Assembly: GCA_045632645.1 (NCBI GenBank)
Contig: JAZQXC010000014.1
Span: 104,637 to 168,636 of the forward strand
From: Alphaproteobacteria bacterium
Lineage (GTDB): Bacteria; Pseudomonadota; Alphaproteobacteria; RF32; CAG-239
Length of the DNA: 64,000 nt
Direction of reading: 5' to 3'
The notes beneath the pieces are model-generated. The model was given only the letters and a program-made list of their open reading frames with translations. It did not search any database and had not been told where the DNA came from. The position numbers and the translations under genes are program-made. Positions 56,837 to 57,730 of the stretch are shown here, piece after piece. Position 1 is the first letter of the stretch; each line of letters starts with the position of its first letter.

Positions 56837-57730
56837 GTGGAAAAAATATACAAATTATCCCACGAAGAACACGAAGATTTATTACAAAAAATAAAAAAGA
56901 GCGTATTCAAAGATGCAAAAAGCTTTGAAAAACCTAAAGTTTTTATATTTGGAGGTCAACCTGGTGCAGGGAAAAGCACGTTTATTGATTGCCTAATAAA
57001 TAGCGAAGATGGTAAAGATTGCGTGGTTATAAATGCAGATGAATACCGTACATATCACCCAAAAATTCAAGAAATATACACAAATCATCCAGAAGAAATG
57101 GCCGCCAAAACAGATCTAGATGTCAGAGACTGGACACAACGCATTTTTGCATTAGCAATAGAAAATCGCAATAATATCATATTTGAAGGCACAATGCGCA
57201 CCTCTCAAATTTGTGAAACAATAAAAGACCTACATAGCAAAGGTTATGAAGTAAACATACATGTAATGGCTGTTAATTTTTATGAAAGTAAACTTTCAAC
57301 ATACAGCCGTTTTGAAGAGGCAATCAAAGATGGTCAAATGCCTCGCCACACACCTCCAGAGGCGCATGATGAAACATATGAGAAAATGTTAGCAACATTA
57401 CAACAAATAGAAGATGAAGGTTGTTATCATAAAATCACCATTCACGGGCGTGATAAAGAAGTAAATATATCGCAAGCAAATGGACAAAGCAGAGTAGGTT
57501 CAGTAATGGCAATTCTAAAGCATCGTGAAAAAGTATGGTCACAAAGCAAGTTGCAACAATATCAAAATTGGGCAGACAATGTTATTGACTCTATGCAAAA
57601 TCGTGGAGAAACAAGATACATTCCACAAGTAAAAAAGCTAAAGAAAGATGCTCAAAAGATGACAGAAGTTCCAGCCAAAAAAGAATTATCAGCACTCATG
57701 CTTTCCTTAATGCAATCAAAAATGATGTAA
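56837..57730 (+). CDS. zeta-toxin-family P-loop kinase-like protein
   Basis: FGGQPGAGKST matches the zeta/PezT Walker A (GGQPGSGKT); ~300 aa with a helical C-terminal half; no epsilon-like ORF adjacent. Confidence 0.6.
   Translation: MEKIYKLSHEEHEDLLQKIKKSVFKDAKSFEKPKVFIFGGQPGAGKSTFIDCLINSEDGKDCVVINADEYRTYHPKIQEIYTNHPEEMAAKTDLDVRDWTQRIFALAIENRNNIIFEGTMRTSQICETIKDLHSKGYEVNIHVMAVNFYESKLSTYSRFEEAIKDGQMPRHTPPEAHDETYEKMLATLQQIEDEGCYHKITIHGRDKEVNISQANGQSRVGSVMAILKHREKVWSQSKLQQYQNWADNVIDSMQNRGETRYIPQVKKLKKDAQKMTEVPAKKELSALMLSLMQSKMM

Follow-up and report, generated by a model that had tools for sequence, protein, structure and literature searches.

We analysed a 64,000-nucleotide (nt) stretch of an Alphaproteobacteria bacterium genome (assembly GCA_045632645.1, contig JAZQXC010000014.1; hereafter the window), with a focus on a gene for a kinase of the zeta/PezT toxin family that lies head-to-head with a gene for a PHP-domain phosphoesterase. 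The features at this locus are listed below in window coordinates, with protein lengths in amino acids (aa). Homologous loci in other genomes are designated by L numbers.

55887..56711, minus strand: gene for a PHP-domain phosphoesterase of 274 aa, TrpH/COG0613-like (Pfam PHP, E=1e-14)
56712..56836: divergent spacer of 125 nt shared by the PHP and zeta genes, non-coding, with a zeta promoter-like site at 56788-56816 and a ribosome-binding site
56730..56758: block of ~27 nt, ATTACATTnTTGATACAAAANGTTAAT, whose minus strand reads as a PHP promoter, TTAACT-17-TG-AATAAT
56837..57730, plus strand: zeta/PezT-family kinase gene, GTG start, 297 aa
56948..56980, plus strand: Walker A motif (P-loop) FGGQPGAGKST, residues 38-48, with K46 equivalent to K46 of zeta
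57038..57040, plus strand: codon of Asp68, which aligns with the catalytic base of zeta, Asp67, in the comparison with 1gvn_B and is invariant among homologues
57185..57202, plus strand: EGTMRT motif, residues 117-122, corresponding to the UDP-sugar phosphate contacts E116, T118, R120 and T121 of zeta
57308..57346, plus strand: segment from Arg158 to Arg170 (R158 and R171 of zeta), both arginines invariant in two homologue alignments
57755..57785, plus strand: terminator-like hairpin, GCCACCTA-gcaaa-TAGGTGG plus a T run, which closes the zeta transcription unit

The GTG start codon of the kinase is preceded by AAGGA at 8-12 nt on its 5' side, and the start was considered sound because the orthologues carry ATG at the matching position of the alignment. 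An initial annotation, made from the DNA letters alone, had reported that the 125 nt upstream of the gene (56712-56836) hold no small open reading frame (ORF) and that a terminator and then a promoter follow it. Both observations were borne out: no sense ORF of at least 20 aa was present upstream, the sole match at that length on either strand being an antisense ORF of 36 aa overlapping the start of zeta, and downstream the hairpin at 57755-57775, also kept in L013 and L001, and its T run were followed by a TTGACA-17-TATAAA promoter at ~57800. The PHP gene, described there as convergent, is in fact divergent from zeta, since its start codon lies at 56711 on the minus strand. The closest relatives of the kinase were 80% identical and belonged to metagenome-assembled genomes (MAGs) named 'Alphaproteobacteria bacterium' from animal guts, including roe-deer colon (RGIG4178) and SIG44. 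Recent horizontal acquisition of the gene was rejected, as its GC content (34.9% versus 32.4 ± 2.5% for the window) is within 1 standard deviation of the window and its orthologues are syntenic with PHP across species.

Profile searches placed the kinase in the zeta family, as the initial annotation had proposed. Pfam Zeta_toxin (PF06414) matched with E=3.1e-46 and 157.8 bits (cut-off 22.3), far ahead of the next Pfam family, AAA_33, which barely passed with 29 bits; no better match to another P-loop kinase family lacking the zeta-specific residues was obtained. The NCBIfam PezT model also matched (E=2.6e-27), but with a score of 95.7 against an equivalog cut-off of 470. At E<0.01, a sequence search of the PDB returned only zeta (1gvn_B, 4e-23) and PezT (2p5t_B, 1e-19). 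Membership in a known defence system was not indicated, PADLOC giving only weak generic P-loop matches for the kinase.

An AlphaFold2 model of the kinase, built on 27 homologues, had a mean predicted local distance difference test (pLDDT) score of 88.8. Foldseek comparison with the PDB placed zeta on top (1gvn_B and 3q8x_B, E~1e-17, 272 aligned columns, template modelling (TM) scores 0.77/0.84), with PezT (0.73/0.86), AvrRxo1 (0.58) and ng_zeta1 (0.43) below. The kinase domain begins at about residue 5, and the protein is collinear with zeta from residue 6. The initial annotation had taken the ~300-aa protein to be longer than a minimal zeta domain and had suggested a different substrate or regulation on that ground. 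Neither point held, because canonical S. pyogenes zeta has 287 aa and the match includes the C-terminal helices of the model; the length is thus normal and indicates no added domain, the architecture is that of canonical zeta, and the C-terminal region is shared by the partner-bearing relatives described below. The conserved C-terminal tail, VPAxKELSxLLxxLxxSK, has low pLDDT.

The roles of K46, D67 and the UDP-N-acetylglucosamine (UDP-GlcNAc) contacts of zeta have been described (PMC3062530), and these residues were mapped onto the window protein. K46 corresponds to K46 and D67 to D68; E116, T118, R120 and T121 correspond to E117, T119, R121 and T122; T128 corresponds to T128, R158 to R158 and R171 to R170; E100, which contacts the UDP ribose 2'-OH, corresponds to Q101. 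Of the UDP-GlcNAc contacts, D67, T118, R120, T121 and T128 are retained, and E100 is conservatively changed. Across the 27 homologues, K46, D68, E117, G118, R121, T128, R158, R170 and H177 are invariant, and the Walker A residues G40-K46 are invariant or near-invariant. By profile, motifs and fold, the window protein is a zeta/PezT-family P-loop kinase. Because only E100 differs among the functional residues, the best-supported predicted activity is that of a UDP-sugar kinase whose substrate is most likely UDP-GlcNAc.

Zeta (omega-epsilon-zeta of S. pyogenes pSM19035; PDB 1GVN, 3Q8X) and PezT (S. pneumoniae; 2P5T) belong to the same Pfam family as the window kinase. They share with it the fold (272 and 253 aligned columns, TM 0.77-0.86), the Walker A motif, catalytic Asp, EGTxRT motif and two arginines, and are of comparable length (287 and 253 aa versus 297 aa). 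The initial annotation had noted the resemblance to zeta/PezT in the Walker A motif, GGQPGAGKS, whose K46 aligns with zeta K46. In contrast to zeta and PezT, with which it has ~23% sequence identity, the window kinase has Gln in place of E100 and no upstream epsilon or PezA gene; it is chromosomal, in an AT-rich gut alphaproteobacterium, and is transcribed alone, divergently from PHP.

The relatives of the kinase showed what is missing at the window locus. All kinase homologues at 42-48% identity, from other gut alphaproteobacterial MAGs, have an ORF of 92-98 aa with an overlap of 11 nt at the kinase start. The small partner proteins are homologous to one another and form a helical family of ~76-100 aa with the motif DTAIE...KP..QN...MY.G. 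A partner lies directly beside zeta in L003 (5730-6011), L006 (4718-5011), L008 (1338-1622), L018-L027, L032-L035 (L033/L035 from Xanthomonas), L037, L039, L044-L047, L055 and others. In a partner profile search, family members were recovered immediately 5' of zeta homologues from Xanthomonas, Burkholderia, Limnohabitans and others, immediately 3' of zeta in Clostridia MAGs (L007, 5896-6138; L028-L031), and fused to the kinase N-terminus in Shimazuella and Paenactinomyces (L040, 3542-4660; L054, 3701-4837). In a search of 5.8 billion proteins, 128 partner-family clusters were obtained, from Xanthomonas, Burkholderia, Ralstonia, Clostridia and gut Alphaproteobacteria, and every named one was 'hypothetical'.

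The partner family was compared with known proteins. In the PDB its best profile match was a coiled coil (E=0.088), epsilon, PezA and ng_epsilon1 being absent from the matches, and in Pfam there was no credible match (best per-sequence E=0.003, all under gathering scores); the L003 member had no PADLOC or PHROG match. Kinship with epsilon or PezA was therefore rejected for want of sequence similarity in the PDB and Pfam searches. Partners unrelated to epsilon do exist, as Neisseria ng_epsilon1 illustrates (PMC5923241). From its position, the ~90-aa partner is a candidate antitoxin of these kinases, and the family likely a new antitoxin class for a large zeta branch.

The partner is absent from the window and from L001/L014, L013, L012/L015, L016, L017 and L009-L011; every orthologue with at least 53% identity lacks it. 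In a neighbour-joining tree, the partner-less kinases formed one clade nested among partner-bearing ones, which identifies the absence as a single derived loss. This loss falls at the base of the clade of animal-gut Alphaproteobacteria to which the window belongs. Purifying selection has acted on the kinase ever since: its reading frame is full length in all orthologues, and the ratio of nonsynonymous to synonymous divergence (dN/dS) is 0.14-0.15 at a dS of ~0.85 (versus 80%-identity orthologues). Only two differences are fixed between partner-less and partner-bearing kinases, A176/S and T180/A, both outside the known catalytic and UDP-GlcNAc-contact residues; clade-specific inactivating substitutions were accordingly rejected as an explanation for life without the partner. 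As judged from its residues, the partner-less enzyme looks equally competent to the partner-bearing ones.

The orphan state itself is not new, because orphan pezT/zeta genes unaccompanied by PezA or epsilon appear in a 2023 survey of PezAT, which also sought new upstream partners by guilt by association (PMC10532202). Compared with those orphans, the loss at the window locus is placed on a tree as a single event, and the orphan state persists under purifying selection. A PHP neighbour is absent among the upstream-gene clusters named in the cited passage of that survey (PMC10532202).

That no antitoxin gene adjoins the kinase, as first annotated, was upheld by the ORF scans of both flanks, and partner-family searches covered the whole 64 kb. 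Three partner sequences used as tblastn queries reached no E below 0.12, and hmmsearch --max with a three-sequence partner profile against all stop-to-stop segments of at least 25 aa reached none below 2.4. No partner-family homologue was thus found in any of the six frames of the 64 kb; epsilon and PezA were not directly searched for in the window. An epsilon/zeta or PezAT-type operon is not present at the locus, which has no upstream small gene and has the divergent PHP as its upstream neighbour. Three small downstream ORFs in 57731-57970 (46, 42 and 20 aa) were rejected as antitoxin genes, and are not coding, because 1-nt indels break their frames in the orthologous regions; the DNA-conserved leader that holds them recurs before a second copy of the downstream gene p472, distant from zeta. 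An RNA antitoxin or other known RNA element was likewise rejected, an Rfam search of 54000-64000 giving only sub-threshold noise.

A zeta kinase without a separate antitoxin gene has a precedent in EzeT of E. coli, in which toxin and antitoxin form a single chain, the antitoxin domain acting in cis from the N-terminus (PMC4826407). The window kinase has no such domain, because it is collinear with zeta from residue 6, and its Walker A lies at residues 39-47, as in free-standing zeta. EzeT-like partner fusions do occur in the same subfamily (L040, L054), but not in the window kinase.

Across genomes, PHP is the sole gene that remains beside zeta. It lies on the opposite strand, 110-125 nt 5' of zeta, in the window, L001/L014, L013, L012/L015, L164, L016, L017 and L167. 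The left flank of this pair is of four kinds (infC, a TM1266-like gene, tolQRA, accBC) and the right flank of at least four (p472, an 853-aa protein, small ORFs, yebC, pssA-psd). Because the outer flanks differ among genomes, the pair has survived several rearrangements on both sides. The tie of zeta to a downstream 'cassette array' that the initial annotation had drawn is therefore positional only, orthologues elsewhere keeping PHP next to unrelated downstream genes. Within the shared spacer, the ATTACATTnTTGATACAAAANGTTAAT block is nearly invariant in five genomes despite synonymous sites near saturation; it is unique in the window, with 0 occurrences expected by chance, and its exact pattern is present in L001, L013, L014 and L016.

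The PHP orthologues are 65-79% identical, and all metal ligands of the trinuclear site are invariant. In the PDB, PHP matched 3e0f best (E=5e-28), followed by Cv1693 (2yb1) and RNase AM (7ug9), and there was no PADLOC match. An assignment as RNase AM or as 3',5'-nucleoside bisphosphate phosphatase was rejected on two grounds. The NCBIfam scores were far under the equivalog cut-offs (135.7 versus 400 and 125.1 versus 375), and the motif AHPNNLKK, with Asn190 invariant in the clade, stands in place of AHPGRY of Cv1693 and RNase AM, whose Arg contacts the scissile phosphate in RNase AM (PMC9410882), so that PHP lacks this Arg. The replacement suggests a substrate other than 5'-phosphorylated RNA or adenosine 3',5'-bisphosphate (pAp).

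Only one lineage of the partner-less clade, P0021 (L009-L011), is without PHP, which is cleanly absent between the TM1266-like gene and zeta. Its kinase has nine deviations at near-invariant positions, versus 0-3 in other sequences. The changes include T119I and loss of the C-terminal tail; T118V, at the Thr equivalent to T119 of the window kinase, abolishes PezT toxicity (PMC3062530). The relaxed conservation of substrate residues where PHP is missing suggests that the intact enzyme is not innocuous.

On balance we consider it probable that the window holds an intact zeta/PezT kinase from a former two-gene module, whose partner was lost once and which has been kept under selection beside PHP. 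With ATP, the kinase would phosphorylate a sugar hydroxyl of UDP-GlcNAc, its predicted substrate, or of a close UDP-sugar, and this would throttle peptidoglycan synthesis. It would descend from a module of toxin and partner that every other branch of the subfamily keeps, with the partner upstream (11-nt overlap), downstream or fused, and would now be a resident chromosomal gene, apparently transcribed alone from a weak promoter and with its own terminator. We infer that the kinase is active and potentially toxic, and that the lost inhibitor is replaced by weak expression, by PHP acting as a hydrolase of the phosphorylated product, or by both. The role of PHP in this proposal is tentative and, in our judgement, doubtful: sharing a conserved divergent promoter region with zeta, it might act as a product-reversing antidote that hydrolyses the kinase-added phosphate on the UDP-sugar, or as a futile-cycle brake on cell-wall precursor supply. 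The ng_zeta1 paper mentions only an unexplained loss of phosphorylated product in vitro, and no link between a zeta toxin and a PHP enzyme was found in the literature searched.

Several points weigh against this account. The window kinase has Gln at the position of zeta E100, the residue in contact with the ribose 2'-OH, and this change is also present in partner-bearing relatives. The PHP link is drawn from conserved gene order in a single clade, of 7-8 species-level genomes, together with one lineage that serves as a counter-example. Neither the closest outgroup PHP (L161, 48% identity) nor a 42% homologue has a zeta neighbour, and PHP is therefore probably a resident housekeeping-type gene beside which the zeta module settled. 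No phosphatase for phosphorylated UDP-GlcNAc (UNAG-3P) was found in the literature searched. Finally, the partner search in the source genome covered 64 kb, and a partner gene may lie elsewhere. When metagenomes were scanned with the PHP alignment, no relative above 37% identity came back and none lay beside zeta, and a general PHP-zeta association beyond the clade was rejected; the association is clade-specific, because PHP relatives outside the clade have no zeta neighbour.

The alternative that has to be weighed first is a split toxin-antitoxin pair, in which the cognate inhibitor, of the ~90-aa family or another, is encoded elsewhere and acts in trans. The kinase would indeed seem to need an inhibitor, because its functional residues are indistinguishable from those of partner-bearing relatives, and the partner clearly changes place relative to zeta, preceding it, following it or fused to it according to lineage; the coverage of 64 kb also leaves room for it. 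Yet no partner homologue was found in the 64 kb or within 4-6 kb on either side of the orthologues in at least seven genomes, and none of 120 listed partner-family proteins was traced to contigs carrying an orphan-clade zeta, a weak check made on the longest contig per cluster. Long-term separation of toxin and antitoxin genes is, moreover, unusual in type II modules, which weighs against a split pair. We regard such a pair as unlikely.

Decidedly unlikely, in our view, is a domesticated, non-toxic kinase of low activity or shifted substrate, for which no antidote would be needed and PHP adjacency would reflect co-regulation or chance. Long vertical inheritance, purifying selection and housekeeping neighbourhoods would fit a tamed enzyme, as would the change of E100 to Gln. 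Physiological zeta levels are reported to induce reversible dormancy rather than death (PMC4179160), and orphan pezT/zeta genes to be common (PMC10532202). However, E100Q and all other pocket residues are common to the partner-bearing sister clades, only two differences are fixed between the groups, and the PHP-less lineage has relaxed conservation at substrate-binding residues. Domestication leaves unexplained why identical pockets need partners in sister clades, and why the kinase becomes less conserved once PHP is gone.

A secreted effector or interbacterial toxin, delivered by a nearby type IV secretion system, is very improbable. In its favour, a gene for a VirD4/TraG coupling protein (49062-51278) lies 5.5 kb upstream of zeta, and likewise in L001; the partner-bearing L003 homologue adjoins virB4 and three TrbC/VirB2 genes; the C-terminal tail VPAxKELSxLLxxLxxSK is conserved and has low pLDDT; and secretion of a zeta-like effector is already known from AvrRxo1 (PMC4938570). 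On the other hand, ligA, infC and PHP intervene between virD4 and zeta, the L015, L016 and L017 orthologues lie amid tolQRA, accBC, pssA and yebC, the 4 kb on either side being free of secretion genes, and no recognised secretion signal was found in the kinase. Such an effector would still require a producer-protecting partner, as AvrRxo1 requires Arc1. AvrRxo1/Arc1 (a Xanthomonas NAD 3'-kinase effector) and ng_zeta1/ng_epsilon1 (Neisseria) contain zeta-fold kinases like the window protein, but the match is much weaker (TM 0.58 and 0.43, no sequence hit at E<0.01) and both have adjacent partners.

A decaying toxin-antitoxin remnant, a pseudogene in the making, would accord with the loss of the partner gene and the relaxed conservation in P0021, but it is practically dismissed by the full-length frame in all orthologues, the dN/dS of 0.14-0.15 and the invariant catalytic residues.

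Other features of the window were also recorded. Downstream of zeta, two paralogues of 472 aa (57971-59389) and 462 aa (61691-63079; phmmer E=5e-144 between copies) lie on either side of a gene for an ABC transporter ATPase/permease (59455-61395), and a GNAT acetyltransferase gene (63133-63615) comes after them. Neither paralogue had a Pfam match, and the 472-aa copy, the only one tested, had no NCBIfam, PADLOC or PHROG match; their orthologues follow zeta in the closest genomes only. A promoter and a leader of ~140-170 nt precede both copies (57800-57970 and 61520-61690; also L013 4965-5133 and L001 6970-7141). The leader hardly varies between species that differ by a coding dS of ~0.85, and in the RNAalifold prediction TTTCTTTT forms a long hairpin with the ribosome-binding site AGAAAGGAA, in which three pair changes are compensatory. 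It is a candidate riboswitch or attenuator and has no Rfam match.

In the region 44007-51278, the VirD4/TraG gene (49062-51278), also kept in L001 and L002, comes after four large ORFs (430, 609, 163 and 432 aa) without a Pfam match, which may encode divergent type IV secretion components or effectors. A 283-aa ORF between ligA and infC (54350-55201) had no Pfam, NCBIfam, PADLOC or PHROG match and is conserved at this position in both L001 and L013.

Unless a bound antitoxin restrains them, zeta toxins are considered to kill cells or arrest their growth. Here, an apparently intact zeta kinase has been kept for long without a bound antitoxin, and its relatives with upstream, downstream or fused partners are natural controls. 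What is new is the placement of the loss on the tree, the long-term retention of the intact enzyme and the conserved pairing with PHP. The question raised is how a cell lives with an uninhibited predicted UDP-GlcNAc kinase. In the ~90-aa partner family of the relatives, a large branch of zeta toxins has a candidate class of antitoxins. If PHP does reverse the kinase product, it would add an enzymatic, product-level antidote to the mechanisms of toxin-antitoxin systems, and would be the first dedicated UNAG-3P phosphatase.

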